A DNA stretch of 64,000 nt from an uncultured Clostridia bacterium (GTDB lineage Bacteria > Bacillota > Clostridia > Christensenellales > UBA1242): positions 16,694-80,693 of the forward strand of contig CAKVHC010000002.1 of assembly GCA_934747805.1 (NCBI GenBank). The letters run 5' to 3'. The notes beneath the pieces were generated by a model. The model made no database searches, was not told the DNA's origin, and worked only from the letters and a program-made list of their open reading frames with translations. The translations under genes were made by a program, and so were the position numbers. Position 1 is the stretch's first letter. Every line of letters starts with the position of its first letter. Positions 11,801-48,041 of this stretch are shown here, piece after piece.

Positions 11801-14800
11801 ACATAACCAAACCAGATGAGTTATCCACCGTAAATGGTTATATTGAAGTGCCAATCAGTGCAACTTATGGACTAGATAACTACACAGATTACATAATTAA
11901 AGTGGGCAACATTGAATACTCACACAGTAATCTGCTGGAATATAGCAATCTGATTGTCATGAATGACAAATTTGCGGATATAACCAATGACGAAAAAGTT
12001 GATGGGGAAAATAAGTTCCAACTCATTGGCAATGTTTTGAGCGTTAAAGGCACAATCAGTCAGGTGTATTATATAGAGATTAATGTTAAAGCACCTTATG
12101 CGTCAAGTGTAAAATTGAAACTATATCTGCACAGTGCAGTAAGCGTTGCATATGAAGATTACGCAACTAAGAATGATAAATATCAACAGATATATTCTGG
12201 CACAAGCTTTATTCTAATGGATCAATCTAGCGAGACAGCAGTTTCTCCATTCAAGATTTTTGTTGCCAAGAATTTGGCGAAGTTCGCTGATGCGAGTGGC
12301 ATCAAGTCAGTAACTGTTTCAACGTCGGCTGACGGGAAAACCTTCACTGCTGATGGAACAACCATTATTCCTACCAACGAAAGATATTTGTTCACTGTTG
12401 ACAGCGGCTATGTTGGAAAATATGTGAAATTCACAATCAGCTTCAACATTCCAGCTGACAATATTGAGTATATTGTTTATGTCAACGATAATCTGCTTGT
12501 GGAAGAAAAATCTACAGCGTTCATCCAGAACGGCACTCTTACAGCGTATTGCGGAGAAGGGTATAATCTCGCCGATTATATCACTCTCAATCAATTTGAC
12601 AACAATGAATATGCCGAATATTCTCTGTCAAACGCTAATAAAATTGCCGATCCTAGTTATCAGATTGAAGGTTTAGCAGATTTTGACCTGTCCAGCAGTT
12701 TCACATGCAATTGGGATTGGGAAGGTAAAGAACTAAACGTTACTTACAATGGCAAAAATGTTATTAAAATTGCAGTCACCAATCCTTATAAAATTATTCA
12801 ACAAAGTGCTGACAATTTGCATGTAAAGGCTTTGACTGTGGTTAAATTGGCAGACTTTATCAATGAAACAGGCATCAAAGTACTCAAGAAAGCCATCAGT
12901 TTTAACCCAACATTAACTTATTACAATGCTGAGGGCCGTGAAATCGTTAATGCAGTAGAATCAGGCATTGAAGATTACTACACAATGGTCGACAGGGCAG
13001 TTTACACTATTGCTTTTGCTGAAAGTGGGATTTTGTCTGACGCAGAAGTTCGCATTGGTGAATTGAACAACGAAACATATTTGTATGTTAATAAGCAAAC
13101 TGCTGCAGGCAGCATCACATATCAGATTACATATTATGATGAAGAGAACGAAAGTCGTCAAAATGCTAATGTGATTATGCTTGTGCAACCTAACTTGCCA
13201 GATGATTTCATCAAGGACAATAGACAAGGCACTAGCGGCGATACAATTGACTTGAAATCATTTATCAACACCACTTTCGAATATGATTTGTTTGAATGGA
13301 ACGATGAGTTAAATCAACCAGTCAAAGCTGCTGGCGAGATCAAACTATCAGAAGAAACGCCATTTACATCTAATGACACTGAGTTTTTGAAGAGTGATCC
13401 ATCCATGTTCGTGGCAGTTGAGCCTACTGACCCACGTGGCGACTCGATACTTACATTCACAGTTCACACTGACTTTGGCTACAGCCAAGAATTCACTGTG
13501 ACAATCAAGTCAGCCATTCAATTGATAGCCACTTATCCAACACATGTTTCTACTCAAAAACAAATTGACGGAGAAATTGTTGATATAGTTTATGAGCAAG
13601 TAACACCAGGTCAAACTGTGAATATGTTCGCCCCAGACGATGAGAATAAAATTACTCGCATTAAGGCAACCAGAAACGGCACTGAAACTATTACAACAGG
13701 CTTGAATATTGGATACAGCTATTTGGCTGGTCGTGACGATGTCAATGCGATGAGCCTTATCACTATTAATAATAACGGTTCAATCACATTCAAAGACACC
13801 AACACTACAGGATTGTTCGCAATGACAATCAGTGTAAGCAATCGTGAATTGCTGTACTATTTCTATTTAGCACCTAAGGCTAATATAGCATTTACACCAA
13901 ACTATAGTGGCGATGCGGAAATTGTCAAAGTGAACAAAGACAACAAAACACTTGACATTGCTAATCTCTACACACTCAAAATAGACGGCGTGGACGTTGA
14001 CAAGTCTAAGTTGCAGTATGAAATCTGTTATTCGACCAACACAAACACCACAATTGTGGATAGCATGCTCACATTTGAAGAATCGAATGTGATAAATGAC
14101 TACATCGTCGTAATATATGATAAAGAATATATATATGGCTATTATAAAGTACAAACAGCACCAGACGTAGTCACTGAGAACACAGAAATCAGTTGGACGC
14201 CTGACAAGATAGGCGAAACACTCAGCCCATTGCCAACATTTGAATATGACGGCGGTGCAATGGAAATATTGAGTGTGGTCGCAGATAGCAATTTAAGTGA
14301 GTATCTCAACATTAGTGCGGACAATGCTATCACGCTCAAACAGTTTGTTCCAAATGCTGTTACTGGCGTGCTGACGTACAAGTTGCGAATGATGTCTGAC
14401 GGAATAGAAATCGGCGAATACGAGCATAAAGTCGATTTGACAATCAGCCCAAGAGAGTATTTCGTGAACAACTACAATAGCACTAAGAATGCGTTAACAG
14501 TCATTGAAAATGACACATTCAGTCTGTTGGATAACGAATACAACCTTGCTGGCTTGACGGTGGCAGACAATGGCTTGAGTTACGAGCTCACACATATTGA
14601 CGGAATTTTGTACACGAACCAAGACCTGAGCAAATATTACGAAGAAAACGGCTTGAATTTCACATTCAAACCTGTGACAAAAGATGTTTTGTTGCAATTC
14701 GTTGTTAAGACCAACTTTGGCTATGAACAAGACTTGTACATTCGCATTTTGGCGAATATGAGTTCACCAAATTATCTAGAAAACATAGGTGCGACAGACG

Positions 14801-17800
14801 ACAGTGCTTTAGTTGTTGGCAACCAGTTTGTTGCAGGTGAAGACGGCAACAATGAGTTCGTATTCAAGCGTATGATCGACTTGAAAGATTATCTATCTAT
14901 TACAAACCGTGAAACACCTGCAGTTGAATTGCTAGTGGCAGACAATTTCCGTTTGAATGCGACAATATTGTCCAATTGGGCAATTGACGAAGGTTTGACA
15001 GCAGACAATCTTTATTCACTGAGCGGAACGATATTGACCTTCAAACCTCTTGCAAAAGACCTAGCACTCAAGTTCACAGTGCAAATTGTCATGAGTAAAG
15101 GCGAGAGCGGAGTCGAACCAGTATACTTTGAAAGAACAGTTGATTTCTTCATCAACCTTTCAGCAAACTATAGCGCAAAGGTGAATTATACCTTTGAGGG
15201 CGACGTGAGTGAACTAGTAGAAAACGGCGAGCATATCAATCTTAACGATGCTAATTTCTTGGAAAATAGAGATGCGCTATCAGGCATCACAACCTACAAC
15301 TCAAAGCGTATAACTTTCTATTACACCGCTGAAGATAACACTATAACTGAGTTTGACTATAGCAAGATTGCAGACAAGGATGTTAACAACCAGTTGGAAA
15401 TCTCGACTGAGAGCCAAACTAATGATAATATCCGTGCAACGTGGGATGATAGCAAGATCACTTTCTACAACAGAGAGTCTAGCGTCATTGGGTCAGTGAC
15501 TTTGAGATTTAAAAATCAAGTCGGCATCGACCTGACAATGACATTCAAAATCTATCCTGACAACACGCTTGATGCCATTAGTTCAATCAAATACAACGGA
15601 AAAGCTCCTAGCGAAACTAATGACCACGAATTAATCTTGGAAGGGGATTTGAACGAAAGTAACGACTTCGTCATCACCAGATTCGGCGAAAATTCGAAAG
15701 TTCAATTCAGATATCCTTCAGGCGAAATAACTGATTTTGTCAACTCGTTGAAAGAAAAGAGCGTAGTGGAATACGACGGCAAAATAGATAATGAATCATG
15801 CTTTAACATAATATTTAATGAATCAATAATTAGTATTCAGTTTGAAGACGCTAACGGCAATCCAATCTATCCAGCGCCTAAAATGTACACAATACACTTT
15901 ATGTCACGTGCAGGATACTTAGGCAGTTACAAGTTTACGTTTAGCAAAGACGTGACATTCACACACCTAAATCCAAACTACAACACAGTGACAGGAGAGT
16001 CAATTTACGGTTCAGCAACTGGTGAATATATCTTGGATAGAGTAAACATAATGTTGAATCCTTACACGGACGGCTACAGTGCTAACCAAGTAAACCTTTC
16101 TGATATGCTTAGAACTTCAAGTGAGTATAACAATTACACAATTGAATATAAGTCAAATTCAAACTACATTACTATTGGCACAAACGACGAAAAAACTCGC
16201 ACAGATTTGCTAACATTTGGCGAAGTGCCTAAGGACACTATTGCCAGTGTAACAATAAGGGTGCTTTATAAAGGCGTTGTAATAGCATCCCATGACTACA
16301 TTTTCACAATTAGAGAACACTTGATAGTCTCATTGGGTGATTACAATAGCGAGCTCACTAAAACGTCTCTCGACATCTATATGCGAGATTTCTACATTAA
16401 TGAATTTAATGCAGACAGTTTGCCGGAGTCAGTGGAGTACGATTTGACAAACAAAAATGACAATATCGATGGTTTGTACTTCACGCTCTTCGACGTTTAT
16501 AAAAATGAATACGCCGGTGTCAACGATCTCCGATTCGATATTGACACAGCCTCTAACGAGGGCATCACAGAATATGTACAACTCGACCAAGACAACAGAA
16601 AATTAATATTCTTAAAAGACGTAAAGGTTGAGACAAAACTCTACTTGAGAGCAAGACACCAACTTGGTGAATACAACACATTCACCATTACGATCAAACC
16701 AAGCATTGCAATTAGTCAATACTCGAACGGTGATAGTAACTACATTTATCCGGGCAATGAGTTTAATACGGTGTATTCGCTCGACGAACTAACACTCTCA
16801 AATACTACAAACAAAACTGATGCAGTTGGTACATTGCCAAGAATTAATTTTGACGATGTCAAAGATAAAGGAAAAGCACCATTGAGCATTTATGCAGTGT
16901 CCAATGGTATGTATGTTCCACTTGTTGATGCATCCGTCGAAAAGAAAGTAGTCTCTATGGGATATGCAATGTTTGACTCGGAAGAAGCACTGACTAATGT
17001 GTCAACAGGATATCTGAGAACTGCGTATATCAATTTGACAGTAAAATACGACGAAACACAGACTGTAATTACAAATACACAGACTGGAAATACAAATACT
17101 TGGTACAATGCTTACTCATTTACCGTTCCTAATGTGAACAAAGTAAAAATTATGGCAGTCAAGGTTAGTGTTCGCCTATTGGGTAACACGTACTACGATT
17201 CATACTATTTCATCAAAGTAAATCCTGTATTGGAAATTGGCACAAGTGACAAATATAGCACACTTACACAGATTTTAAAGGATGACTTGAAAAATAGTAC
17301 TACTAGAACCGCAAGCGAGTACACTTTGTTTAACAAAGATGGAAAGTTATCTGATACAGCGACTGGATTGTTCTATTGGTCTCCAAGAGCAAAAATGGAA
17401 TCGTTCGATTTCGATAAGTTTAGTGATAACGTTATTTTCGTAATCACTAGCGTTGATAACGGATTGACTAACAAACTAACCTTTGGACTTTCAAGCACCG
17501 TAGATAACATTGCTTTGACTATTGAGTCGGATAACGGCACACTATTCAACAATGCACTTAAATTCAGACTATATATTCTTGCTAAGGACAGTAGAAATGC
17601 GTTTGAGTTTGAAAACGAAGCCTCAATCAAGACGTACGACGCAGTTGATAAAGAAACCTTGACAAAGCTTGAAAACAACATGATATTTGCACAAGACATT
17701 GAAATCAAGCCTGAAAAGGCGCTGGGCATATATACAATCGACGACAAGGGCAACTGGACGGATATCAAACAAATTGACACTCTGAAGGAACTGGGACTGC

Positions 17801-18648
17801 CTACTAGTCAGACTTATATGATTGATTACGTAATAGCCAGCGGCATAACTGGAACAAGCCGAATTGTTGACTTAATTAAAAACAATTTCATTGGAGAAAA
17901 TCTCGAAGACTACATTACTGGTTCCGATAACGTCTCTCTAACTTTAAATAACACTGCTGATTACGATTGGGCTATCTATAGCGAGAATATAACAGTTACA
18001 TATGGCAACTTTATATTAACTCGTGAGTTCAAGCACATTGAAAGCAACAGCAATACGTTTGTTAGAGTAAATTACTCTACGTATGGTTATAGATTGGTAA
18101 TGACACCTGAGATTAAAGGCGAAAATTATATCAACAACTGGTACAAACTAAATGAATCAGTCAGTCTTGTATCTATTAACACCAATTATGGTGTGCATAT
18201 GAACACCATAACAGAGATTTCAGATGCTAACAAGGTAAATATCTCTTTAGTAAACGAGAACACTAAGGTACAAATATTCACTCAAGATACGAAGTGGTAC
18301 ACATTAGACGGCAACGGCAACTACGTGCAGTACAATGGCAATCAATTTGAAGAAGGTGTAGAATATTATTACTATGATAATTACATGGGCAACTATCGCA
18401 AGTTCGATTGGAGAGCCTACACGCTCTACAATTCTGATGGAGAAGTAACCACTAGTCTTGGAATCAATTTGTATATTGATCTAAAAGATTGCGTGAAAGA
18501 CAATGTATTCACACTTCCATACGAAGCGTGGGCTTCTGAATCTATGAGTCTTTCATTCAATGTAGAGATTATATATGGAGATAAGTCTTACAAATCTCAA
18601 ATTAGAATTCTAGAAATTTCTGCAAAGCCTAACAAATCTCAAGGCTAA
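8884..18648 (+). CDS. giant (3254 aa) N-terminally membrane-anchored surface protein, orphan
   Basis: Uninterrupted 9765-nt ORF with an AGAGG RBS. One N-terminal TM helix (IVGLSFCGVIGVFGIIAGVMAI). N/T/Y/D/I/S-rich, beta-type composition. No LPXTG motif and no recognisable catalytic motif. Confidence 0.85.
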   Translation: MFKRIMKIVGLSFCGVIGVFGIIAGVMAIRGDFKQKKIKPTGLYFSADETYFSDNQLLLSPVQDTDSFYFQVKADNEDCNVLGIKLSITSGADVIKIVDKNNSPITDAKIWGDVKIIPQTQGGINVGGTARISAISDDGLVATTRDLVVHVDVPVQDLTPSDDVKNTAGDNTCKTPTRDKGPVDSKRYFTYVASTKTFNEVDNILYDGKYYDFDVNKGIYKQVTTTDSSTYLNFAELYEDCYMATMFNDNSLNIDTLYKFYPNSPNSQNPINRDGYGNKNVEAFILDADDLQLATLSADGKSIISNGKGLTGDVRVLLAVYPTYAKQKLAQADTTISNKERIEKYMVSREIVIRIGATTIKDMSVSRKSLSLKLFEYIPLQLNNSLAENNLGMVIRDTADNPISSIYKYLKFSFVDAMGNDANDLGAYFTITNDQSTTVPDLADDVEKEDLSGNTQLYIYAKRYIPKAYMKISYVSGTETLKDVYVELYTTFVEPSISLNAGTGTIDKLIDDRLIGGVNNAANIIDLAGHYTVTSEETVYRTVLYFAKSDNKNLAPENFPVCVFSNKTYTNGEITYYLVGYTENDGEGNVTVVTDKLKANVGTGNISIIAVVVRTDYKGRIINLNTPKVDGEYVELDLADGNAYEFNTDYSQADGESEKKSSAMTASTQQLSVSIAYKVQNVDISLSAKLGDNDVTTEGDQKYVENTMVKGKKSNTFYLRESFAGTITLLLNDCYDKSALQTASDKGLISLSAVMYDQNGVYNRYGQYESIANYINLRNKTAVYDDNVFIGYRYDVELLKATPQDCYITFALSVYDYNESFPRTIQNADNTYEEYRLDNIVILSGAVQKIDLVDKNGDDLLENNSVDNPLILLAKWNEDKKQFDYTLDGKSVTNGENFLSKGEFNILISPSYASNKNYLLSSANGAVLSIGSNNAITIGKELGKVKLTISCDNVESYIYIELRLDTSSDATINITKPDELSTVNGYIEVPISATYGLDNYTDYIIKVGNIEYSHSNLLEYSNLIVMNDKFADITNDEKVDGENKFQLIGNVLSVKGTISQVYYIEINVKAPYASSVKLKLYLHSAVSVAYEDYATKNDKYQQIYSGTSFILMDQSSETAVSPFKIFVAKNLAKFADASGIKSVTVSTSADGKTFTADGTTIIPTNERYLFTVDSGYVGKYVKFTISFNIPADNIEYIVYVNDNLLVEEKSTAFIQNGTLTAYCGEGYNLADYITLNQFDNNEYAEYSLSNANKIADPSYQIEGLADFDLSSSFTCNWDWEGKELNVTYNGKNVIKIAVTNPYKIIQQSADNLHVKALTVVKLADFINETGIKVLKKAISFNPTLTYYNAEGREIVNAVESGIEDYYTMVDRAVYTIAFAESGILSDAEVRIGELNNETYLYVNKQTAAGSITYQITYYDEENESRQNANVIMLVQPNLPDDFIKDNRQGTSGDTIDLKSFINTTFEYDLFEWNDELNQPVKAAGEIKLSEETPFTSNDTEFLKSDPSMFVAVEPTDPRGDSILTFTVHTDFGYSQEFTVTIKSAIQLIATYPTHVSTQKQIDGEIVDIVYEQVTPGQTVNMFAPDDENKITRIKATRNGTETITTGLNIGYSYLAGRDDVNAMSLITINNNGSITFKDTNTTGLFAMTISVSNRELLYYFYLAPKANIAFTPNYSGDAEIVKVNKDNKTLDIANLYTLKIDGVDVDKSKLQYEICYSTNTNTTIVDSMLTFEESNVINDYIVVIYDKEYIYGYYKVQTAPDVVTENTEISWTPDKIGETLSPLPTFEYDGGAMEILSVVADSNLSEYLNISADNAITLKQFVPNAVTGVLTYKLRMMSDGIEIGEYEHKVDLTISPREYFVNNYNSTKNALTVIENDTFSLLDNEYNLAGLTVADNGLSYELTHIDGILYTNQDLSKYYEENGLNFTFKPVTKDVLLQFVVKTNFGYEQDLYIRILANMSSPNYLENIGATDDSALVVGNQFVAGEDGNNEFVFKRMIDLKDYLSITNRETPAVELLVADNFRLNATILSNWAIDEGLTADNLYSLSGTILTFKPLAKDLALKFTVQIVMSKGESGVEPVYFERTVDFFINLSANYSAKVNYTFEGDVSELVENGEHINLNDANFLENRDALSGITTYNSKRITFYYTAEDNTITEFDYSKIADKDVNNQLEISTESQTNDNIRATWDDSKITFYNRESSVIGSVTLRFKNQVGIDLTMTFKIYPDNTLDAISSIKYNGKAPSETNDHELILEGDLNESNDFVITRFGENSKVQFRYPSGEITDFVNSLKEKSVVEYDGKIDNESCFNIIFNESIISIQFEDANGNPIYPAPKMYTIHFMSRAGYLGSYKFTFSKDVTFTHLNPNYNTVTGESIYGSATGEYILDRVNIMLNPYTDGYSANQVNLSDMLRTSSEYNNYTIEYKSNSNYITIGTNDEKTRTDLLTFGEVPKDTIASVTIRVLYKGVVIASHDYIFTIREHLIVSLGDYNSELTKTSLDIYMRDFYINEFNADSLPESVEYDLTNKNDNIDGLYFTLFDVYKNEYAGVNDLRFDIDTASNEGITEYVQLDQDNRKLIFLKDVKVETKLYLRARHQLGEYNTFTITIKPSIAISQYSNGDSNYIYPGNEFNTVYSLDELTLSNTTNKTDAVGTLPRINFDDVKDKGKAPLSIYAVSNGMYVPLVDASVEKKVVSMGYAMFDSEEALTNVSTGYLRTAYINLTVKYDETQTVITNTQTGNTNTWYNAYSFTVPNVNKVKIMAVKVSVRLLGNTYYDSYYFIKVNPVLEIGTSDKYSTLTQILKDDLKNSTTRTASEYTLFNKDGKLSDTATGLFYWSPRAKMESFDFDKFSDNVIFVITSVDNGLTNKLTFGLSSTVDNIALTIESDNGTLFNNALKFRLYILAKDSRNAFEFENEASIKTYDAVDKETLTKLENNMIFAQDIEIKPEKALGIYTIDDKGNWTDIKQIDTLKELGLPTSQTYMIDYVIASGITGTSRIVDLIKNNFIGENLEDYITGSDNVSLTLNNTADYDWAIYSENITVTYGNFILTREFKHIESNSNTFVRVNYSTYGYRLVMTPEIKGENYINNWYKLNESVSLVSINTNYGVHMNTITEISDANKVNISLVNENTKVQIFTQDTKWYTLDGNGNYVQYNGNQFEEGVEYYYYDNYMGNYRKFDWRAYTLYNSDGEVTTSLGINLYIDLKDCVKDNVFTLPYEAWASESMSLSFNVEIIYGDKSYKSQIRILEISAKPNKSQG

Positions 18649-18723: not shown

Positions 18724-18745
18724 AACACCAAAAGTGGAGGAAATT

Positions 18746-21700
18746 ATGGCATTTAATGATGAAGGACTTATGAGAGAGTTGGCACGTATCAATAGAGCGG
18801 AGATTGATCTTGACAACAAAAATGCTGTCAAAGCTTGGGTTGACAACACTTCGTACAAATATATGATAGACGCAAGTGATAATTCCTATGGTTTTGTTGA
18901 GAAAATCATCGTTGCATTATTGCTTTTGGGCGACGAAACAGAAACTACAGTTGGCTTGACTGCAGAAGAACGTAACACTGTTATGCGTATTGCCAACGAT
19001 GCATCACTATTGAGAGATAAAACGTATCTGACTAAAGTCTTGACAATGTTTTACAAAAAGGCTGACGGCAGAGATTTGACAAAACAGAGTGACGAACTTA
19101 ACTTGGATTTTGTTAAGTCATATCTTCATAACTATGGATTTAACGATTTGGCAGTTGACACAATCATTTCTCGTGGCAGAATTAGTGATAAAGCAAGTCT
19201 TGTTAACAATGCAGCTAAAGTAATTAGTGCAAACGTTGGAACCAAGACCATCATTAGCAAGGCTAGCGAAATATCTTCCGCAAAGAAAGATGTCATCAAA
19301 CTAGCTGAGAAAGTTTACGAGAACAGCGGTGTTCCGGCAGCTCACAGCATTGATAGCATTCCGAACAGAATTTGGACTGGCAGCGATGTTACGACCGATA
19401 AAGACGGACTAGCTACTTATGTAAAATCCGGTCAGCTGAAGAAAGCTGAAGAACGAATTGTGACTGACGATAAGAGTCATCCATTGACCGGCATTTTAAG
19501 AAGCTTTGTAACAGACAGCGACTCAGTTAAGGTTGAAACACCTGACCAGATCATAGACGACATTCAAGCATATTTGTCGATGAGTGATCGTTTGACTACG
19601 GTTAAAACCGAATCAGAATGGAAAGATATTCGTAAGAACATTGAAGTTCATGCTCAATTGGAAATTGACGAGGACGGCAATGGTGTCATCAGCACTCCAA
19701 TCAGTGGCAAAAAGTTAAAAACCAAAACCGCTGACGGAAAGAAGATTGTTAAAACCGTAGAACTAGGTACAGTTGGCATCGAACCAGGAGCAAGTTTCGT
19801 AGGTTATGACTTATCTGATTCTAAGGTTAAAAAGGCTTACGACTTGATGCAACAAGGTTCGCTCAGCATCCACAACCCTGACGACAGACTCGCAATCGAT
19901 TTGTTGAACGCACACAAATTGTATTCTAGTGCAGTTGGTTTGCCAGTTAGCCCAAAAACTACTACAGCCAACATCTATGCCAACATGATTGATCAACCTG
20001 AGGGCATCATTGCCGCAGACGGTTTGACCAGTGCAATGCGAGACTTTTTCAGTAAGATTATCAACAACTCTAACAGTCCATACAATCGTGTTGACATCAA
20101 CAATGGTGTAGTAGATTACGACAGCGACCACACCTTTAGCACTAACGTCAATAAATTGTTTAAAAACAAGACCAAAAAGATAACTGGTACTAAATTGAAA
20201 TTCAGTACACGCTTTATCAGTTATGACGAAAATGGAGAATTAAATGGTGCTGGCATTTTGAAGAGTGACGATGCCATCAAATTCTCTGTAATTCAATCAA
20301 TTGTGCTAGACTATGTCAGCGCTCTCGGAAAGAAAGTAAAGAATTCTAGTTTCAAGATTGTTGGCGCTGCAAAAGATAATGTCCGTGACCCTAACGAACG
20401 TGCTTTGATTGCCAACCTAGCCACACAATATGTAATGTTAGGTTATTCATTTGGTGAAGGCTCCGCACATAGAACTAACGAAGATATCATCAGCACATAT
20501 CTAATGGAAAACCAAGCTTCACTCATGGCAGGTCTTGCAAAATCTGGCAAGGATTATAAGTTGGTATTGCCACGTGCTTATAAACTAGCTTTGGAAATCG
20601 CAGAGACAGTTACTGATTGCCTTGGCGTAGATAAGACTATGAAACGTGATGAAAGAACAGGCCAAATCGTTGAAAAGAGCGAACTCGTTGCCAACTTTGA
20701 ACGTCACGGCTTCACATTCCCAAGAATGAACTCTAACGATCAGCCTTTGTTTATGTCGAATGACCAAAAAGCAAGACTTTCTGGCGCCGACTTGAAGAAA
20801 GTTAATGACGAAGAAAAGCGTTTGCGTGGATTGGATATCACATCACAAGATAGTTTGGGTGCACTTTTGGTAACCTGCATTGACACTCAACTCTCACCAA
20901 GAGAAATCACCATCGAACCAAAGGATGAAGCTATTAAACAAGCCGACGAAAGAAAATTCGCTGGTGGATTTAGTGTTGCAAGCAGCGGTGACGCTCCTGT
21001 ATTTATTGACATGGGCGTATTTACTAATAGTGATACTGCTGATACACCTAAAATTGACAAAGAAGATTTGGCTGCTACCAAAATCCCAGAAAAGACTGCC
21101 GACTATGAGAAGAATCCTACTGGCGAACCTTCTCCAAAGTCAACATTCGAATCTTTGTTTGATAAAATGCTTGGCGGCACCGGTACAGAAGAACCTGAAA
21201 AGAAAGCGGCTACTGAATCCGATCGAAGAGTTGGTCAACTTTGGGAAAGCACTGGAGACGCTCCATTCCCTGTACGTGTCTTTAGAGATGGAAGACCTCT
21301 AGAGACCAAACCTCTAGAAGCAACCAAAACTCCAGAAGAAACCAAAGCTTCAGGAACAATCTATTTGCCAGGCAAAGTGGAAAGCATGGAAGGTGCGAAT
21401 GTCCCAGCAATCAAAAAGTCCGCTAGCGAAAATCTTCCTGCAGGAATAATTGAGGTTTCGTTTAGTGGTGTTGAAGAAATTTCTCCTGCTTCTCATGATA
21501 GTAAGAAAAAAGTGAAGAAAATAGCAACGCAAGTATTATGCTCGTTGAACCTTGCTACTGGAGATTTGACTTACACTTTCAAATACAATGAAATTGGTGA
21601 TGATGTTGTTGTTGAAGAGAAATGGACTACAAAATTGACTAAAGATCAGCTAGATGACATTAACAATGCCATAAGTAAGAAAAAGAAAATAAGTGTTTTG

Positions 21701-21802
21701 GCCGAGTACGCTAGAAAGATTGGAAAAAACCGCTTTAAAGATTTTATGATGAGAAGTCTACACAATAGTGACGTTTCAATTGAAAATAACATCTCAAAAT
21801 AG
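18746..21802 (+). CDS. large (1018 aa) orphan protein without signal peptide or TM segment
   Basis: GGAGG RBS 6 nt upstream of ATG 18746; the ORF-track GTG at 18734 lies inside that RBS. A Pro/Glu/Lys/Thr-rich linker sits near aa 800-900. No family motif recognised. Confidence 0.8.
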   Translation: MAFNDEGLMRELARINRAEIDLDNKNAVKAWVDNTSYKYMIDASDNSYGFVEKIIVALLLLGDETETTVGLTAEERNTVMRIANDASLLRDKTYLTKVLTMFYKKADGRDLTKQSDELNLDFVKSYLHNYGFNDLAVDTIISRGRISDKASLVNNAAKVISANVGTKTIISKASEISSAKKDVIKLAEKVYENSGVPAAHSIDSIPNRIWTGSDVTTDKDGLATYVKSGQLKKAEERIVTDDKSHPLTGILRSFVTDSDSVKVETPDQIIDDIQAYLSMSDRLTTVKTESEWKDIRKNIEVHAQLEIDEDGNGVISTPISGKKLKTKTADGKKIVKTVELGTVGIEPGASFVGYDLSDSKVKKAYDLMQQGSLSIHNPDDRLAIDLLNAHKLYSSAVGLPVSPKTTTANIYANMIDQPEGIIAADGLTSAMRDFFSKIINNSNSPYNRVDINNGVVDYDSDHTFSTNVNKLFKNKTKKITGTKLKFSTRFISYDENGELNGAGILKSDDAIKFSVIQSIVLDYVSALGKKVKNSSFKIVGAAKDNVRDPNERALIANLATQYVMLGYSFGEGSAHRTNEDIISTYLMENQASLMAGLAKSGKDYKLVLPRAYKLALEIAETVTDCLGVDKTMKRDERTGQIVEKSELVANFERHGFTFPRMNSNDQPLFMSNDQKARLSGADLKKVNDEEKRLRGLDITSQDSLGALLVTCIDTQLSPREITIEPKDEAIKQADERKFAGGFSVASSGDAPVFIDMGVFTNSDTADTPKIDKEDLAATKIPEKTADYEKNPTGEPSPKSTFESLFDKMLGGTGTEEPEKKAATESDRRVGQLWESTGDAPFPVRVFRDGRPLETKPLEATKTPEETKASGTIYLPGKVESMEGANVPAIKKSASENLPAGIIEVSFSGVEEISPASHDSKKKVKKIATQVLCSLNLATGDLTYTFKYNEIGDDVVVEEKWTTKLTKDQLDDINNAISKKKKISVLAEYARKIGKNRFKDFMMRSLHNSDVSIENNISK

Positions 21803-27860: not shown

Positions 27861-27953
27861 TTGTCAAAATTAGACATAAAAAATGTTAAAAACCTATTTA
27901 CAAACGTATTTCTTTGTGCTATAATACGGCTATACAAAAGGAGATTTCCAATA

Positions 27954-28178
27954 ATGGCAACAGTTATATTTAATGGTAAAAAGCTTCCCGTTATAGACTT
28001 TAGTGAGATTGGGGCACATCAAGAATGCGCTTTTGAGTTTAAAGGTAAAATATTTTATCGCAACGGCAACGCAGTTACACCAATTACTGACAAACACTGC
28101 ACGCTTATTGAGACCAAAAAACGCATTGCAGCCATTAAAGAGAGACAAAACGAGAACGCCAAAGCAATGTCACGTTAA
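27954..28178 (+). CDS. small hypothetical protein (74 aa)
   Basis: Own promoter (TTTACA, 17 nt, TGcTATAAT), AAAGGAG RBS and own terminator at 28187-28213. Confidence 0.6.
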   Translation: MATVIFNGKKLPVIDFSEIGAHQECAFEFKGKIFYRNGNAVTPITDKHCTLIETKKRIAAIKERQNENAKAMSR

Positions 28179-28275
28179 TTAATTTTAAAAGAGTCTTTTT
28201 GGACTCTTTTTTTGTGCTCAAAATATTTTACAAATAATTTTCAATGTGTTAATATATAATTATATTGAGGTTATT

Positions 28276-28536
28276 ATGAGTGAATATGTTTATCCAGCAA
28301 TAATATATCCAGACAGCGAAGGTCGTGGCTTTACTATCAGCGTGCCGGACGTCAACATAGTGACAGAGGGCGAAACTGTGGAAGAGGCTTTTTTGCGTGC
28401 CAAAGATTTTTTGGCTAGCTATATCGAGGTTTGCAACGAACTAGACAGCGACATCGAAGGCTCAACCACTTTTGCTGAAACGGCTAAGAAGAACCCTAAA
28501 CGTATCATTTTATTGGTTGATGCAGACAACGAATAA
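28276..28536 (+). CDS. HicB-like antitoxin, N-terminal domain only (no DNA-binding domain)
   Basis: MSEYVYPAIIYPDSEGRGFTISVPDVNIVTEGETVEEAFLRAKDFLASYIE fits the remembered HicB_lk_antitox pattern (YxYPA....e.gGf.v.fPD....TeGeT.eEA...AkdaL). Confidence 0.65.
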   Translation: MSEYVYPAIIYPDSEGRGFTISVPDVNIVTEGETVEEAFLRAKDFLASYIEVCNELDSDIEGSTTFAETAKKNPKRIILLVDADNE

Positions 28537-28546
28537 GAGGTGAGCG

Positions 28547-29068
28547 ATGGAATACAAACTCTGTCATGAAAATTGGAGTCAATTCGATTTTCTAATCAAC
28601 AACTTTTACGAAATCGTGGAATACAAACGTGGACGTGGTGTGTATGGCGACAGAATCATTTTGCGCCGCCCACGCAATCCACAATCCGTGTTCGCCACTC
28701 CGGACAAGCAGTACGATTTTTACTACCTTGACGCACACAACACCAAAGAGTTGCCACGCACCACAGCCGAAAAGATTGTGCTCATCACCAAGTTCGTTTG
28801 CGACCCACAGGCAATGACCCAAATAATTCGTGCCGACGACGCCAACGTCATCAATTGGTCAATTAACTTGCGTAAAAATATTCGTTTGGCGAAATCTATC
28901 GACTACAACACTCTTAACGACATTTTGGTGGGGCAATATCACAAATTGTCAAACGAATTTTTGGCAAAACTGCACGCTCACCGACAAAAACAATACTTGC
29001 TGGCTAGCAGTGAAGCACTCGGTTTAGTTAGTCCAGAATTCGCCAACAATCAGATTAATGTTTTATAA
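28547..29068 (+). CDS. hypothetical 173-aa protein co-transcribed with the HicB-like gene
   Basis: GAGGTG RBS. Starts 10 nt after the HicB-like stop. No motif recognised and it is not HicA-like. Confidence 0.6.
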   Translation: MEYKLCHENWSQFDFLINNFYEIVEYKRGRGVYGDRIILRRPRNPQSVFATPDKQYDFYYLDAHNTKELPRTTAEKIVLITKFVCDPQAMTQIIRADDANVINWSINLRKNIRLAKSIDYNTLNDILVGQYHKLSNEFLAKLHAHRQKQYLLASSEALGLVSPEFANNQINVL

Positions 29069-29100
29069 AAGACACACACTTTGTGTCTTTTTTATTTTTT
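29067..29100 (+). terminator. rho-independent terminator
   Basis: AAGACACA-cactt-TGTGTCTT followed by a T-run. Confidence 0.75.
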
Positions 29101-29168
29101 TATTCAAATTCACTTGCTTAAAACTTATATTTTACGTTAAACTATATGTAATAAAAGGAGTATAACAA

Positions 29169-31875
29169 ATGAATTACAATCATGAAAGTCGCAGACTGAA
29201 GATCGTAATGTGGATACTAGTAGGGCTATTAATACTCAGTATCACCGGAGTCAGTCTGTGGTTCGCACTGTCATTACGTACTCCGTCCGAGACACTCAAC
29301 TCCGTGAACATAGGCTCACGAATCACGGGGGGGGGGCTTCAAAAGTAATATAACCAACGCTGACGTCTGGGACGGTACAACCTCGACCAATTGGTCGGGT
29401 AGCGGCACGTCATCTAGTCCATATCTTATCGGCACCGCTAGTCAACTGGCAGGGCTTGCGACCAATGTTAACGGTGGCACTAATTATGCGGGTAAATATT
29501 TTAAGTTGACCAGCAATTTGGACATGGCAGGCGAGGGATATAGCTATAGTACTGGCACCACAACATTACCTTACTCTCAGTACGGCAGCTATAAAGTAGG
29601 TGACACGTTTACAAACGGCTATTACACATACACAGTTACTAGCAAGTCTTATCCTAAAGAGGGCACAACCAAGACGTACTATTTATATTGGGATTATGGC
29701 TTTAATTACGCATCGGAAGATGGCAGCATTTCTCAAGAACCTGAATACAGTATTGGTGATTATATATTAAATTATAACACTGAAAAAGTAGAAGTATTGC
29801 AGGTCTACGATGCAGCTGAAGAAAAAGAATATACCACTGACTATGGCACATCCACCACCACAGGATATTATTTGAATGATCCGCAAGAAGTTTCAGGAAG
29901 TAATATAAGCTTTACAGGCTATAATGAATTAATTCACAACGCTGAAATCGATGATTATAGCCAAGATTTAACTAATTCTGTTTTCTACAATGATCAATAC
30001 TTTTGGATATATTATGTCAAGGCAACCATAGTAGAAGGTTATTCCGCCGGCAGCGTTACATGTAAATATGTTTATTCCAAAGGTAAAGCATTCACTTCAA
30101 TCGGAAATAGCTCTACTAATTATTTTGCAGGTAATTTTGATGGTGATGGGTATACAATTGGCAATATTGCGTTACTCAACAAAACGGGTGCAATAGGTTT
30201 GTTCGGTTATGTTCAATCACAGACTAGTAAAGTGACGTTTAAAAATTTAAACATAGTTTACGACTATAGTGCCAAGTACGACGACGCATTGTTTGGCGGC
30301 TTGTGTGGAACGATAACGGCGGCTAGTAATGCTAATGTTGATATAGAAAATGTAAATGTTACTTTTAATACTTCCACAACATTTACTGGAAAATCTTATA
30401 TCGGCGGCCTTGTGGGGAAGATAGAAGAATCCACATCTGCAAGGAGAGTGAATATCTCAAAATGCACTACGCCTAAGTTTAATGCGTCAACAAGCGGAAG
30501 TAATATTTCTGAGCTATATTTTGGTGGAATTTTAGCATATGGTTACAATGTAAATATCTCCGAGTGTAGCTCAGCAGCAACAATCTCAACGTCCGCAACA
30601 CTTGTTAAATATTTGGGTGGCATTGCAGGGTGTTTGAGATCAAGTTGCAACGTGGCTGATTGCTATTTTAATGGTTCATTAGATACAACAAGTTCGCACA
30701 GAGGAACAGGATACGGTTATTATGTTGGTGGCATAGTGGCATATATCGGTGCCTCTCCAACATGTGTTATAAGCAACAATCTTTTCCAAGGCAAAATTAC
30801 ATATTATTCCACTGCGACGAAAACGGAGGCTAATAGTGGAACATCAACTGGTTACTGGGCACCATGCGAAAGTATTGGTGGCATAGTTGGCGGTTTCTAT
30901 TGTGATGATGACAATTCTCCAACAGTGACAGTTATACACAATATAGCTAACGGCAGTTTGAAAAATCGTAGGTCGTCAAGTCTTTACGATATGGCTGGTG
31001 GCGTAGTTGGAGGAAAGCACGCACCAAATTCAATTAGTGAGAATGTGTACAATTCGGCGAAGATGACATTGACGAATAATTCTGAAACACCAGCCTTTTC
31101 TACAACAGGAGCGACAGCTGATGCTGACGTAAAATCGCTTTCTACTTATATTTCTTGGACGGACTTTAGCACTCACTGGTCTATAAACGACAAGCTCAAC
31201 AATGGCTACCCAATGCTTGCGGCATTTATTCCAATGGCGTTGGTTACAGGTTTTGAGGGCGACGGCAATTCGAACTCACCATATCTCATAAACACTCAAG
31301 CAGACATGATTGGTTTTGCAAACTATTACAACAACAACGCAAAGATACAATCGGGCGTTTATTGGAAACTAAATGCCGATATTGATATGGCAAAAGATGC
31401 TAGCAACGTTCTCATACACTTTACTCCAGTTTGCTATGGCAAATCATTCGACGGATATTTCGATGGCAATAGCAAAACAATCAGCAATATACTCATTGAT
31501 GACCAATATCAATATGCGGGGCTGTTCGGCACCATTGCCAGCGGAAGCTACATTAAAAATTTGACTGTAACAGGCAATATCTTTTGGGACGAAGCTTACG
31601 CTGTTGGTGGTGTTGCTGGCCGTGTGCTTGCTGGCGGATATTTGCAAAACTGCACATTCAATGGCAGTATTATTGGCGTGCTTAACACCAAATCAGCCAC
31701 AGAATGTAATGGCGTGGTTGGCAGGTACGAAATAAATGGAGCAATAGATTGTACAGCAACCTATATCGACCTAAAGTATGCCCAGATTGGTGGAACAGCG
31801 ACCGCTCCGTCATACACATATTACTTGTATGATTGGGCTCAAATAACCACGTATTTGTACAACAAGGCAAATTAA
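29169..31875 (+). pseudogene. GLUG-motif (beta-helix) surface protein gene interrupted by a frameshift in a poly-G tract (phase-OFF, or a homopolymer assembly error)
   Basis: ATG 29169 with AAGGAG RBS encodes a signal-anchor (MNYNHESRRLKIVMWILVGLLILSITGVSLWFALSL...), runs into G10 and stops at TAA 29346-29348. The +1 frame is open from 29314 to 31875 and reads ...GGGFKSNITNADVWDGTTSTNWSGSGTSSSPYLIGTASQLAGLATNVNGGTNYAGKYFKLTSNLDM..., followed by many GGL/GGI(V/A)G GLUG-like repeats. Confidence 0.75.
29327..29336 (+). repeat. G10 homopolymer tract at the junction of the two reading frames
   Basis: Counted directly: ...aatcac GGGGGGGGGG cttc. G9 or G12 would fuse the leader frame to the long frame. 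Confidence 0.9.
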
Positions 31876-32017: not shown

Positions 32018-32046
32018 TTGACACTAGGGTCGGTTAAGTGTATAAT
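32018..32046 (+). promoter_or_regulatory. consensus sigma-A promoter of the str operon
   Basis: TTGACA (32018-32023), 17-nt spacer, TATAAT (32041-32046). Confidence 0.7.
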
Positions 32047-43644: not shown

Positions 43645-43792
43645 TGGTGTCGAAGGCGGGACTTGTCTATGCGACGATAGTCGTATATTTCGGGTGGCGT
43701 CGAAGACGACGGGACCCCGAATACAAGGTGAAAGTCTCTTGATAGAGTAATATGAATAAAAAAAACAGGTGCAACCTGTTTAATTATAAATC
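43645..43792 (-). repeat. unit A: degenerate 21-nt tRNA-Leu T-loop-to-CCA copy plus hairpin module plus terminator hairpin
   Basis: tggtgtcgaaggcgggacttg (43645-43665; 2 mismatches to the tRNA end). The body is about 90 percent identical to 47858-47999. The hairpin module lies at 43678-43722. Confidence 0.7.
43757..43780 (-). terminator. rho-independent terminator downstream (minus strand) of the partial tRNA-Leu copy
   Basis: Minus strand reads ACAGGT-tgc-ACCTGT followed by T8. Confidence 0.55.
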
Positions 43793-43848
43793 TGGTGCCG
43801 AAGGTGGGACTTGAACCCACATGAAGTTGCCCTCGCAAGATTTTGAGT
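43793..43848 (-). repeat. perfect 56-nt copy of the 3-prime part of tRNA-Leu(CAA), anticodon loop to CCA (att-like direct repeat)
   Basis: Identical to 48042-48097. Identity stops exactly at the 5-prime edge of the anticodon loop. Confidence 0.9.
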
Positions 43849-44467: not shown

Positions 44468-47400
44468 ATGAAAAATTTTGATAAAAAAATAAATGCCGCC
44501 ATAATAATTACCGTGATCCTCGTTTTTAGCTTTTTTGGTGTTGAAATAGTGAAATTTGGTACTAACTTAAATAATTCAGAATTCCAAAAAGTTGCAAACG
44601 TTCACAGTCTTTCGGTGAGAAATGAGGCAAAAACGACAACGCAAGTAAACCTTGGCGACTATATAATTCTTGGCAAATACAATGGTAAAGACATTGTATG
44701 GAGGTGTGTAAGTAATGATGAAAGTGGCACACTTATGCTTGCCGACAGTATAATAGATATTTTTCCGTATGACGCCATTACAAGCGACAATAATCGCTCA
44801 AAATCTCACAGTCGTGATTATAGACGTGACACCTACGGCTCTAACTATTGGAAGGATAGCAATATGCGTTCGTGGTTAAACTCTATCGCTGAAGTGGGCG
44901 AGGTAAAGTGGCTATGTGGTAATCCTCCAAAAGAGAACCATGTAGACGGCAACGCTTACGACCAGAAAGCGGGATTTTTGAATGATTTTTTAAGGGCGGA
45001 AATTGCCGCAATTAAAACCGTTACCCAGCGTTCGCTTGTGTCGCACCCAGAATATAAGCGAGGAATTTATGATGGAGATGGCCGTTCAGATTTAGAATTA
45101 AATGCAGATATTCAAAATGTTGCCAAAAACTATGATAGTGTTTATGGCGAAAACTCAACCGAAAAGGTTTTTTTGCTTGATGTTAAGCAAGTAAACACCG
45201 TTTGGAGAAACCTTGGTAGTTATTATGTTGGAAAAAATGAGCAAGGTGCAAATTGGCCATATTGGTTAAGAACTCCGGTAACCGATTGCAATCACGATAT
45301 GCGGTATGTTCACAACAATGGAACAATAGGCAGAGAGTCGCCACAACGCAGTTATATTGGAGTTAGGCCTGCCTTTTATCTTGATACAGACTATTATGTG
45401 GCAACTTCTGGTAGCGGAACTAAAGCAAGTCCGTATATAGGCTCCGCTCCTAATAAAGTTGAGGCCGATTATACCGTTGCAGAGCCAAATGACGACCCAA
45501 ACCAAGAGTGGGACATAAGCACAGACCAAAAACTTACGCTTGACCTTGGTCCATACTATTCTAGTGATGGCAAATACTCAAATCCAACAATTCCTGTATA
45601 CACCATTCAAAAAACAAGAAGCGACACAGAAAATATGGTAATTGTTATTTGTGGCGAAGGATATACCAAAAGTCAACAACAAAAATTTATAAACGATGTA
45701 AAAAAAGTGTGGAGAGGTGCCATGCAATACGAACCCTATCGCAGTTTTGCTGATAGATTTAATGTGTATGCTCTTTGCACGGCGTCTGAGTCTAGTTTTG
45801 AAAACGGCGGAAGCACATTTTTTGATGTGGTTGTAGGTTCTAACAATTCTTCGTCTATATCAACCAATTTGGGAAATCGTTGGAAAAACCATATTTTTGA
45901 AAGGTGTATTGGTCCTACATTTATAGAGCAAATTCATGATTCACATATTCCTAACAACACAGACCACAACACAATGTATTGGAATGACGACGAGCAATAT
46001 CCACCATATTATTATGTGCATAATTATATAAACCAGTTTGCCTTGCTGGTTAATACTAGTCGAAACTTTGGAGATGCATATAACAATTTAAAATTTGGTT
46101 TTCATTATTTTATAACTCCATCGGATAGTTATCGCGCCAAGCAAGCTTTTGCACATGAGCTTGGTCACGGGTTGCTAGGGCTTGGCGATGAATATATGAC
46201 CAGTGCCAAACCAGAAACGGACTATACTTCGCTAAATGTGGCATATACTCCTAACCCAGAGCAAGTAAAGTGGAAAAAATTGCTAGGATTTAGAAAAACT
46301 TTTACTTGTAAAACAGCGGAAACTAATACTACTTACAATTCTAGTTATGAGTGTATTATGCGAGATACAAACTACCAGTTTTGTGAAGTTTGCAAATTGC
46401 AAGGGTACAAAAGATTATCTCAACTTGTAAGTGGCAAAAGCCTTTATGTTGCCGACCCCGAAGTAAAAAAATACACCGGTCAATATTCAGATTTGTCTGC
46501 CTTTGCAGATACTACATACAACGGATATGCAAACTTTGCAAGTTATCGCAATACGGTATTGCTTAGTGGTGTAGACAAAAACAAATTTAACAAAAATTTG
46601 GCTGGCGAAAAAATTGAACTCCGCACAATTGTTCAAAATCTGTCAGATAGTATAACCCGTTACATTACTATCAAAGTGTGGATAAAGCGGACAGACGGAA
46701 GTATAGCAACTACAACTGGCGGACAAAGGCTAGAAACCTCGCAAACATTTACCATTCCTATATGGGAAGAAAAAAGTAAGTTTTGGCCAAGGGGTGCTCT
46801 AGAATACAATGGCAGTGTTTTGGATTCAGGACTAGAAAATTGCTCAATAATTTACCAAATTCCGGCAGATGCCGACCTAAAAGAGGGCGATACTATTGCC
46901 TTTTTGATATCTGATGAAAATGGAAATGTTTTATCGCACGACAATATCGAAACGCAGTCGTACGCAAATGTTAATATAGAGTACAGGTTTGAAGACGGTA
47001 GTGAAATTCCTAATGTTTCAAAGGCCGTAATTCCTATGGCTGTTGGAAGCAATCTAAATTGGGAACCAGCTCAATCTTTTTATGGGAATACATTAAGTAG
47101 AGTAGAGGGGCTAAATCAAGTAGTAAGCGGTAGTGGTCAAACGGTAACATTCTATTATATCAAGCAAATCAACAACCATATTCATGATTGGGGAAAATGG
47201 GTAAGCAATAACAACGGTACGCACACCCGAACTTGCAAAACAGATAGTAGCCACACCCAAACAACCAATTGTTTTGGCGGAAAGGCAACATGCACAACAA
47301 AAGCGGTTTGTGAAGGTTGTAAAGAGGCATATGGAGAAATTGTTGCGCACAACATAACAAAATATGGTGGAAAAGATAGCACGGGGCATTGGGATACCTG

Positions 47401-47638
47401 CTCTACTTGTAATGGCAAGTTTAATTTTGAAGGGCATACCTACGACAGAGAATCTCCAGACGAAACCAACTCTGTAAAATGTACAAAGTGCGGATTGCTA
47501 ATTGCACCTGCAAAACAAAGAAAAGGGCTTTCTGGCAAAGCGGTAGCGGGTATTATAATTGGCTCGGTAGCGGTTGTTGTACTGGGAGGATTTGTTATTT
47601 GGTTGCGGTTAAAAAAAAGCCGTTGTAGAGTTAAATAA
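44468..47638 (+). CDS. membrane-anchored multidomain protein: DUF6273-like domain + M64 (IgA-peptidase-like) metalloprotease domain + Cys/His-rich repeats + C-terminal TM anchor
   Basis: N-terminal signal/anchor. DUF6273 pattern: WRCVSN..., NYWKDSNMRSWLNS, VFLLDVKQV, YWLRTP, GVRPAFYLD. M64-like motif FAHELGHGLLGLGDEY (46154-46195). HDWGKW...C...C repeats. C-terminal AVAGIIIGSVAVVVLGGFVIWL-RLKK. Confidence 0.7.
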   Translation: MKNFDKKINAAIIITVILVFSFFGVEIVKFGTNLNNSEFQKVANVHSLSVRNEAKTTTQVNLGDYIILGKYNGKDIVWRCVSNDESGTLMLADSIIDIFPYDAITSDNNRSKSHSRDYRRDTYGSNYWKDSNMRSWLNSIAEVGEVKWLCGNPPKENHVDGNAYDQKAGFLNDFLRAEIAAIKTVTQRSLVSHPEYKRGIYDGDGRSDLELNADIQNVAKNYDSVYGENSTEKVFLLDVKQVNTVWRNLGSYYVGKNEQGANWPYWLRTPVTDCNHDMRYVHNNGTIGRESPQRSYIGVRPAFYLDTDYYVATSGSGTKASPYIGSAPNKVEADYTVAEPNDDPNQEWDISTDQKLTLDLGPYYSSDGKYSNPTIPVYTIQKTRSDTENMVIVICGEGYTKSQQQKFINDVKKVWRGAMQYEPYRSFADRFNVYALCTASESSFENGGSTFFDVVVGSNNSSSISTNLGNRWKNHIFERCIGPTFIEQIHDSHIPNNTDHNTMYWNDDEQYPPYYYVHNYINQFALLVNTSRNFGDAYNNLKFGFHYFITPSDSYRAKQAFAHELGHGLLGLGDEYMTSAKPETDYTSLNVAYTPNPEQVKWKKLLGFRKTFTCKTAETNTTYNSSYECIMRDTNYQFCEVCKLQGYKRLSQLVSGKSLYVADPEVKKYTGQYSDLSAFADTTYNGYANFASYRNTVLLSGVDKNKFNKNLAGEKIELRTIVQNLSDSITRYITIKVWIKRTDGSIATTTGGQRLETSQTFTIPIWEEKSKFWPRGALEYNGSVLDSGLENCSIIYQIPADADLKEGDTIAFLISDENGNVLSHDNIETQSYANVNIEYRFEDGSEIPNVSKAVIPMAVGSNLNWEPAQSFYGNTLSRVEGLNQVVSGSGQTVTFYYIKQINNHIHDWGKWVSNNNGTHTRTCKTDSSHTQTTNCFGGKATCTTKAVCEGCKEAYGEIVAHNITKYGGKDSTGHWDTCSTCNGKFNFEGHTYDRESPDETNSVKCTKCGLLIAPAKQRKGLSGKAVAGIIIGSVAVVVLGGFVIWLRLKKSRCRVK

Positions 47639-47836: not shown

Positions 47837-48041
47837 TGGTGCCGAAGGTGGGACTTGTCTATGCGACGGTAGTCGTATATTTCGGGTGGCGTCGAAGACG
47901 ACGGGGACCCGAATCTATCTAAATATAGTCGTATATTTCGGGTGGCAACGGAGTTGACGGGGACCCGAATACAAGGTGAAAGACCCTCGATATGCTAAGT
48001 AAAAATAAAAAAACAGGTTAAACCCATTTTTCCAGTGTTCG
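47837..48041 (-). repeat. unit B: perfect 21-nt tRNA-Leu T-loop-to-CCA copy plus two tandem hairpin modules plus weak terminator-like hairpin
   Basis: tggtgccgaaggtgggacttg (47837-47857) is identical to 48042-48062. Modules lie at 47870-47914 and 47926-47970, a period of 56 nt. Confidence 0.75.

Follow-up and report, generated by a model that had tools for sequence, protein, structure and literature searches.

A putative slipped-strand G-tract switch in a beta-helix surface protein gene family of uncultured gut Clostridia

The stretch of DNA analyzed here, hereafter the window, comprises 64,000 nucleotides (nt) of contig CAKVHC010000002.1 from an uncultured Clostridia bacterium (assembly GCA_934747805.1). 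Its clpX-rpsL interval contains a gene for a predicted membrane-anchored beta-helix protein, and this gene is split by a homopolymer of ten consecutive G's (29327-29336; all features of the gene and its upstream region are on the + strand). The 5' portion is a leader open reading frame (ORF) of 59 amino acids (aa) (MNYNHESRRLKIVMWILVGLLILSITGVSLWFALSLRTPSETLNSVNIGSRITGGGLQK*; 29169-29348), with a Shine-Dalgarno sequence (AAGGAG, 29155-29160) 8 nt upstream of its start codon, an ATG. The leader encodes a basic N-terminus, one hydrophobic transmembrane helix (~nt 29199-29273) and a short linker, then enters the tract at codon 53 and ends at a TAA (29346-29348). The gene body lies in the +1 frame (29314-31875), which opens just past a TAG (29311-29313) and runs for 854 codons, 846 of them after the tract, to a stop at 31873-31875. 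When the tract was edited in silico, G9 yielded a single ORF of 901 aa and G12 one of 902 aa; the G10 tract spans codons 53-56 of the 901-codon gene. The conserved sequence that follows the tract, CTTCAAAAGTAATATAA (29337-29353), encodes F-K-S-N-I in the frame that joins leader and body (ON) and supplies a TAA in both other (OFF) frames, at 29346-29348 in the current one and at 29351-29353 in the other; with G10, G11 or G8, a stop is reached within 3-5 codons of the tract.

Apart from the G10 tract, no G or C run in the 64-kb window reaches 6 nt: G runs of 3, 4, 5 and 10 nt number 229, 38, 1 and 1, respectively, and no C run exceeds 4 nt. Given the guanine-plus-cytosine (GC) content of 39.1%, the number of G runs of at least 10 nt expected per 64 kb lies between 0.003 (first-order Markov model) and 0.008 (independent bases). 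The 846 codons of the body contain no second stop or indel, and none of the other genes in the window looks frameshifted. Database gene callers report a 783-aa product from the ATG at 29524 for the split gene. We considered an internal start for the body and rejected it: there is no in-frame ATG, GTG or TTG between 29314 and 29506 and no Shine-Dalgarno sequence before 29506 or 29524, the body encodes no separate signal sequence, and such a product would have no anchor. Upstream of the leader, an intrinsic terminator of the preceding 173-aa gene (29067-29099; 10-bp stem, 5-nt loop, then a T-run) indicates that a separate transcription unit begins here, and a promoter-like element, TTGCTT-18 nt-TAAACT, follows at 29114-29143. 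We assign this element tentatively, as part of the conserved 5' cassette described below; a generic consensus promoter scan did not pick it.

The protein encoded by the fused gene contains two related cap segments, SPYLI...GKYFKL..LDM (residues 83-119; 29416-29526) and SPYLI...VYWKL..DIDM (residues 703-741; 31276-31392), as well as eight GG[LIV]x[GA] motifs, and lacks an LPxTG motif. At normal thresholds, Pfam assigns no family to the fused protein, with the Glug family (PF07581) matching two stretches below the gathering cut-off (16.1 vs 20.5 bits, E=0.015), and a PDB sequence-profile search produced no match. Orthologues that are 51% identical (P0002-P0005) carry a precomputed PF07581 match. 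The "GLUG" label is based on homologues and fold, not on the Pfam score.

The AlphaFold model, built for a 98%-identical orthologue from a 16-sequence alignment, has a mean predicted local distance difference test (pLDDT) score of 72.6 and a predicted template modeling (pTM) score of 0.60. Residues 6-36 form a helix and residues 29-59 a disordered linker of low confidence that includes the tract; these are followed by the first SPYLI cap, a beta-rich variable insertion, a beta-helix at ~320-630 and a helical linker. The C-terminal part consists of the second SPYLI cap with a beta-helical segment at ~700-835 (strands 760-835) and a conserved, low-confidence C-terminus. As in solved GLUG domains, GG[LIV]xG turns make up a right-handed beta-helix in the model. 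In Foldseek searches, the top PDB match was 3n6z, the "putative IgA1 protease" BACOVA_03286 of Bacteroides ovatus (E=5e-4, prob 1.00; IgA, immunoglobulin A), followed by IgA1 protease entries of S. pneumoniae and G. haemolysans (6xja, 7uvl and 7uvk; prob 0.99), and pectate-lyase-like beta-helices ranked below these. We rejected an identity as an IgA1 protease (M26/Zmp) given that the protein has no HExxH motif, no Peptidase_M26 match and no PDB sequence match. We therefore class it as a predicted GLUG-like beta-helix surface protein, not as a protease; the N-terminal transmembrane anchor, the predicted fold and a hypervariable middle region all bear on a possible role at the surface or in host interaction.

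Most of these features had been put forward in a preliminary description of the stretch, and they hold: the ten G's, the leader with its AAGGAG and signal-anchor helix that runs into the tract and stops soon after, the +1 frame open from 29314 for about 850 codons, the fusion to an ORF of about 900 aa by G9 or G12, the two SPYLI modules (now placed at fused residues 83 and 703), and the rarity of such a run in an AT-rich genome. The GLUG-like nature of the body, proposed in the same description, is upheld by the eight motifs, the fold and the homologues but not by the Pfam score.

A search with the fused protein identified an orthologue of 901 aa at 98% identity (P0001), whose cluster also includes P0122 (901 aa, 95%) and P0121 (783 aa, identical to the body in the window); the latter is the gene-caller output of the split gene. 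More distant full-length orthologues (879-902 aa, 40-55% identity) retain the leader and the C-terminus, and all these orthologues share the gene order clpX, hicB-like gene, 173-aa ORF, the gene in question, rpsL-rpsG-fusA. All of the orthologues and paralogues have this conserved leader. By this comparison, the ancestral gene is a single intact ORF of ~900 aa. We also considered the possibility that the gene is cargo of a mobile element, which is rejected by its position within a conserved tig-clpP-clpX ... rpsL-rpsG-fusA arrangement in several genomes.

The closest species-representative genome, the metagenome-assembled genome (MAG) "Clostridia bacterium HGM11372", represents a congener and lacks the tract. 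Its EF-G protein is 99.6% identical to that of the window, and the DNA flanking the gene is 89-92% identical, but the central ~1.6 kb of the gene (~29556-31129) shows no detectable nucleotide similarity, whereas the leader and the last ~750 nt are as conserved as the flanks. The comparison and the model jointly delineate a hypervariable center at 29556-31129, comprising the beta-rich insertion and the GG[LIV]xG beta-helix, and a conserved C-terminal module at 31129-31872, with ~92% nucleotide identity to HGM11372 and nearly invariant across paralogues. This pattern suggests a hypervariable cassette between conserved ends, shaped by recombination or diversifying selection. Among the GTDB species representatives reached, we did not find the tract-bearing cassette, only the tract-less HGM11372, and an exact-pattern scan of genome and metagenome contig collections with the 30-nt tract flank produced no match and no further alleles of the window strain.

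With respect to the surroundings of the gene, three small conserved ORFs (27861-29068) always precede it in the clpX-rpsL interval of related genomes: an ORF of 74-105 aa without a Pfam match, a HicB-like antitoxin (28246-28536), for which no HicA-like partner was recognized, and the 173-aa ORF, also without a Pfam match. Directly after the gene and before rpsL, there is a perfect sigma-70 consensus, TTGACA-17 nt-TATAAT (12/12; 32018-32046); no terminator is predicted between the gene and rpsL.

The 5' end of the gene belongs to a cassette that recurs in paralogues. In the shorter homologues P0007, P0010, P0013, P0015 and P0016, the leader is almost unchanged (MNYEERRLKIVMW…NTVNIGSRIT) and is followed by GG, GRG, GRGG, RGRG or GGG. 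Cassette paralogues occupy at least 4 chromosomal sites in related gut MAGs, with a tract of 8-12 nt, pure or interrupted; examples in the ON state are CAC-G6CG4-CTTCAAAAG at the truA-rplM site, G8 downstream of holA and G4AG7 downstream of gap. In the alignment, the promoter-like block CTTGCTTAAA...CGTTAAACTA precedes the paralogues at other sites with the same spacing, and conservation between paralogues at the DNA level covers this block, the ribosome-binding site and the leader (~70% identity to the window). Records of an ON paralogue (P0013), an OFF leader (P0186) and the tract-less P0168 share a scaffold size of 536,588 bp, and those of P0128 and P0135 share a size of 433,352 bp; therefore, several copies of the family appear to be present per genome.

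In the truA-rplM paralogue (L085 147-330, aligned with window 29169-29360), CTTCAAAAG is read in a different frame, giving GGGASKAPGG… in place of GFKSN…, and this frame stays open, which looks like a fossil of a past tract frameshift fixed together with a different downstream body. A separate observation concerns the NADVWDG(T)…G.G….PYLIS junction, which is near-identically encoded in Bacteroidales MAGs (L106, L110, L112, L135 and L157) after an unrelated N-terminal region; the NADVWDG…PYLI junction appears to be common at the boundaries of GLUG-type beta-helix domains in different phyla. A degenerate scan of genome contigs for NADVWDG-coding DNA found 68 loci; the 11 candidates inspected, from Clostridia and Bacteroidales, all lacked the leader cassette.

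Comparison of the paralogues revealed ON and OFF alleles at the same loci. At truA-rplM, the OFF allele L088 (G5CG4) and the ON allele L085 (G6CG4) form a matched pair that is 99.67% identical over 3644 nt, with the one-G deletion as the sole gap; the leader of L088 stops after 61 aa. Two further alleles at this site, L094 (G10TGG) and L095 (G11), are OFF with open bodies, of 848 codons in the latter. At the SUFU-adjacent locus, L092 and L093 (G4TG4) are OFF and L164 (G4TG5) is ON. The OFF alleles come from the samples or runs ERR13863514 (L088), SRR31227469 (L094), SRR16961869 (L095), SAMEA7000493 (L092) and SAMEA7000492 (L093). Thus, at two loci, the ON and OFF alleles are near-identical and a single G sets them apart; the bodies of the OFF relatives are fully open, with 511-848 codons. 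A leader-profile search, together with cluster members, yielded 25 distinct leader-only ORFs of 57-62 aa, compared with 21 distinct in-frame forms. The +1 tail (…LQK*, …IQK*, …IPK*, …SQK*) is present in 14 of the 25 and the +2 tail (…ASKVI*, …VSKVI*, …ASKVV* and others) in the remaining 11; these two tails match exactly those predicted from the window sequence for G10 and G11. All three states occur inside single leader clusters at 90% identity. These deposited alleles demonstrate tract-length polymorphism, with ON and OFF forms, in natural samples.

G tracts also recur at the 5' ends of distant homologues. The set of loci scanned for such runs comprised 84 loci (~700 kb), namely, the 80 fetched with the family alignment plus L001-L004. 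Runs of at least 8 G's were present in 5 of the 84: L003, which carries the window's own allele, one locus with 60% GC, and three in Clostridia MAGs with 32-37% GC. In the low-GC loci, every such run is located at the 5' end of a GLUG-like gene and has its G's on the sense strand. The distant homologues are 24-33% identical and come from other low-GC Clostridia MAGs. L032 has a G9 tract just after the signal peptide and is in frame (ON); L080 has G9 just after a 31-aa signal peptide and is OFF, with G7 or G10 giving a fusion of 554 or 555 aa; and in L024, G9 lies inside the spacer of a TTGACA-N16-TATACT promoter, ~190 nt upstream of the start. L043, a second paralogue in the L032 genome, carries G7 at the same leader position and is out of frame (OFF).

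We conclude that the window probably contains the OFF allele of a gene for an anchored beta-helix surface protein of ~900 aa that is equipped with a slipped-strand G-tract switch and belongs to a multigene family. Under the mechanism that we propose, the tract would encode a Gly-rich flexible linker, and replication slippage would add or remove G's: G9 or G12 would read through, whereas G10 (the state in the window), G11 and G8 would meet a TAA 3-5 codons on, and the anchor-less body would then not be made or not be exported. The paralogues carry the common promoter-leader-G-tract cassette and the conserved C-terminal module around a hypervariable middle and, because the cassette is common to them, each copy could switch independently, as the opa genes of Neisseria do. 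We infer that switching may be fast and reversible within a clone, and it might serve the evasion of antibody (IgA) or phage.

Selection on the body was assessed by comparing branches at the clpX-rpsL locus, with changes polarized using the 95% allele as the outgroup. The window branch has accumulated 20 synonymous and 9 non-synonymous changes, and the branch of the intact allele L001 27 and 11, respectively, so that the ratios of non-synonymous to synonymous rates (dN/dS) are 0.13 and 0.12. By these counts, the body has evolved under purifying selection. The ratio on the window branch equals that on the intact branch and the 846-codon body is open; an old pseudogene is therefore ruled out. 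The preliminary description had interpreted the locus as a contingency locus in the OFF state and had named a plain pseudogene as the alternative. The latter is excluded, given that the window gene shows neither relaxed selection nor a second lesion. The former is strongly supported by the relatives, with their shared cassette, length differences (8-12 nt across loci and samples, both ON and OFF), ON/OFF pairs and leaders in both wrong frames, but less so at the locus itself, where conspecific alleles are interrupted and in frame.

This and several other observations weigh against the proposed explanation. At the tract site, L001 and L002 read ATC ATG GGA GGG GGC TTT (GGGAGGGGG) and L004 reads ATC ACG GAA GGG AGT TTT (GGAAGGGAG), all in frame, and the form ATC AC-G10-CTTC is found in the window and in L003, which is probably from the same sample. 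The polymorphism of the locus, then, is between G10 (OFF) and the A-interrupted 9-nt tracts of two other conspecific strains (ON), not between pure tracts. Because G10 is seen only in the window and L003, the pure tract is, among these alleles, specific to the window strain and not a conserved feature of the locus; the orthologues at 40-55% identity have unrelated codons at the site and no tract. The tract in the window could thus have arisen recently by accident and not be a maintained switch. In the relatives, several OFF alleles have short interrupted tracts (G4TG4, G5CG4), in which slippage is expected to be slow, and some copies may be decaying instead of switching. The surface exposure and function of the product, for their part, are predictions from its sequence and a medium-confidence model. 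Finally, long G runs are error-prone in short reads, so the consensus could be off by one.

If so, the true tract would be G9 or G12, the gene intact, and the split an artefact of the short-read consensus. Such a miscount in assembly or sequencing is unlikely, even though short-read chemistry is known to perform poorly on G homopolymers of 10 nt or more. It would fit the perfectly intact body, with purifying selection as in the intact alleles, and the sole other contig with the G10 allele (L003) may come from the same sample as the window. An identical allele is present in ENA assembly ERZ28614809 (sample SAMEA4766194). However, the 783-aa product is found on contigs of several size classes, in NCBI and ENA, which implies more than one assembly with the same frame, and the window contains no other gene that looks frameshifted. 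Moreover, the relatives are OFF at interrupted tracts that are not error-prone, indicating that one-G frameshifts are real in nature. Even if miscounted, the tract would still be a hypermutable site, and only its current OFF state would fall.

That the tract is a non-adaptive hotspot, in which a stretch of Gly codons drifted by A-to-G changes to G9 and slipped once to G10, producing a recent null allele that will decay without any selected switching, is in our estimate quite unlikely. The series GGAAGGGAG -> GGGAGGGGG -> G10 is a plausible path of substitutions among conspecifics, and the tract-less orthologues, as well as those relatives that are OFF at tracts too short for quick reversion, are compatible with drift. 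The window branch, however, shows no relaxed selection or second lesion, and the OFF bodies elsewhere are fully open. Furthermore, the tract has kept its position in different paralogues and species, the stops are conserved in both alternative frames, and the independent recurrence of G7-G9 at the 5' ends of distant homologues with 32-37% GC is hard to explain without selection for mutability. Programmed recoding, in which slippage of RNA polymerase or a ribosomal frameshift at the G-run would yield full-length protein from a G10 template, is very improbable. Transcription is known to slip at long homopolymers, with the best documentation for A/T runs of at least 9, and G10 and G11 alleles with intact bodies exist. 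However, the OFF alleles include both wrong frames as well as interrupted tracts, a combination that no single signal could rescue, and in-frame alleles are common, so that recoding is unnecessary. Shallow inspection detected no stimulatory structure around the tract, and recoding would at most make the OFF state leaky.

Taken together, the family-wide pattern argues against an artefact and against pure drift: it includes indels of a single G at tracts that are short and interrupted, OFF alleles in either wrong frame, bodies that stay open and stops that are conserved. A broader proposition, which we consider evenly balanced, is that this apparently small-genome lineage of gut Clostridia maintains an opa-like antigenic repertoire, with several cassette paralogues, recombining cores and independent G-tract switching, and that analogous poly-G switches arose repeatedly in other low-GC Clostridia. 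Such a repertoire would represent an undescribed system of phase and antigenic variation based on simple sequence repeats in gut Firmicutes.

The gene family is previously undescribed, whereas the switching mechanism is already known. In the opa genes of Neisseria, CTCTT repeats are located in the signal-peptide coding region of a multigene family of outer-membrane proteins. As in opa, the members of a multigene family combine a conserved 5' leader with a variable part that is presumably exposed, the repeat lies inside or just after the leader, and copies are independently in or out of frame, with many OFF at once. Unlike opa, the repeat is a mononucleotide G tract rather than a pentamer, the host belongs to a Gram-positive lineage of gut Clostridia, the product is a membrane-anchored beta-helix rather than a beta-barrel, and switching is predicted from sequence. 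Poly-G/C contingency genes occur in Campylobacter jejuni and Helicobacter pylori. Poly-G tracts have also been described in Gardnerella spp., in a study that cites slipped-strand mispairing in the sialidase gene nanH3 (bioRxiv 10.1101/2023.01.13.523976). Shared with these three systems are G tracts of ~8-12 nt in genomes of low or moderate GC, their position in the 5' part of the coding sequence or in the promoter of genes with a known or predicted role at the surface or in host interaction, and indels of one nucleotide that produce ON and OFF alleles. The differences lie in the gene family and organisms, in the location of the tract within a paralogue-shared cassette, where it is often interrupted, and in its number, one tract here, by a count limited to the 64-kb window. 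In its predicted function, the locus corresponds to classical contingency loci; the closest architecture is that of Neisseria opa and the closest repeat type that of Campylobacter, Helicobacter and Gardnerella.

Switches based on homopolymers in promoter spacers are exemplified by Bordetella fim and Neisseria porA and opc; the distant homologue L024 resembles these, whereas the tract in the window is translational. The protein shares the predicted beta-helix fold with GG[LIV]xG repeats with GLUG proteins (PF07581), including the N-terminal region of the streptococcal IgA1 M26 proteases and BACOVA_03286. It differs from this group in its N-terminal transmembrane anchor, in having no HExxH, M26 domain or LPxTG, and in a Glug score below the threshold. 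Our literature searches found no paper that ties GLUG proteins, or this lineage, to repeat-mediated switching; the work on phase variation in gut commensals that they did find concerns DNA inversions in Bacteroides. To our knowledge, DNA inversion is also the main phase-variation mechanism known in gut Firmicutes.

Two other regions of the window contain large genes. A tRNA gene (48045-48127, - strand) has its 3' 56 nt repeated exactly at 43793-43848, and a neighboring tRNA-like element of ~95 nt likewise has two copies, at 43645 and 47837 (regions 43645-43848 and 47837-48127). The ~4.2 kb between the repeats contain a single gene for a 1056-aa protein (44468-47638) with Pfam matches to Peptidase_M64 (IgA peptidase) and DUF6273 and a weak match to MucBP. 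The arrangement looks like an insertion into the 3' end of the tRNA gene; no integrase was found among the adjacent ORFs scanned. In the second region, an ORF of 3254 aa (8884-18648), with an N-terminal membrane anchor and a composition rich in N, T, I and D, is followed by one of 1022 aa (18734-21802). Neither has a Pfam match at E<=0.01, and they may represent additional giant surface proteins in this lineage.

If the G-tract switch is real, the surface heterogeneity of uncultured gut Clostridia at the strain level would be readable from metagenomic tract lengths, and selection by IgA or phage on these bacteria would become testable in existing longitudinal cohorts. Annotation pipelines for MAGs would be expected to make systematic errors with such genes, calling them truncated or pseudogenes, as in the present case, where the database entry is the 783-aa fragment. 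The family itself, with its conserved leader and C-terminus and hypervariable beta-helix, would be a candidate for a major antigen or adhesin of an otherwise uncharacterized lineage.

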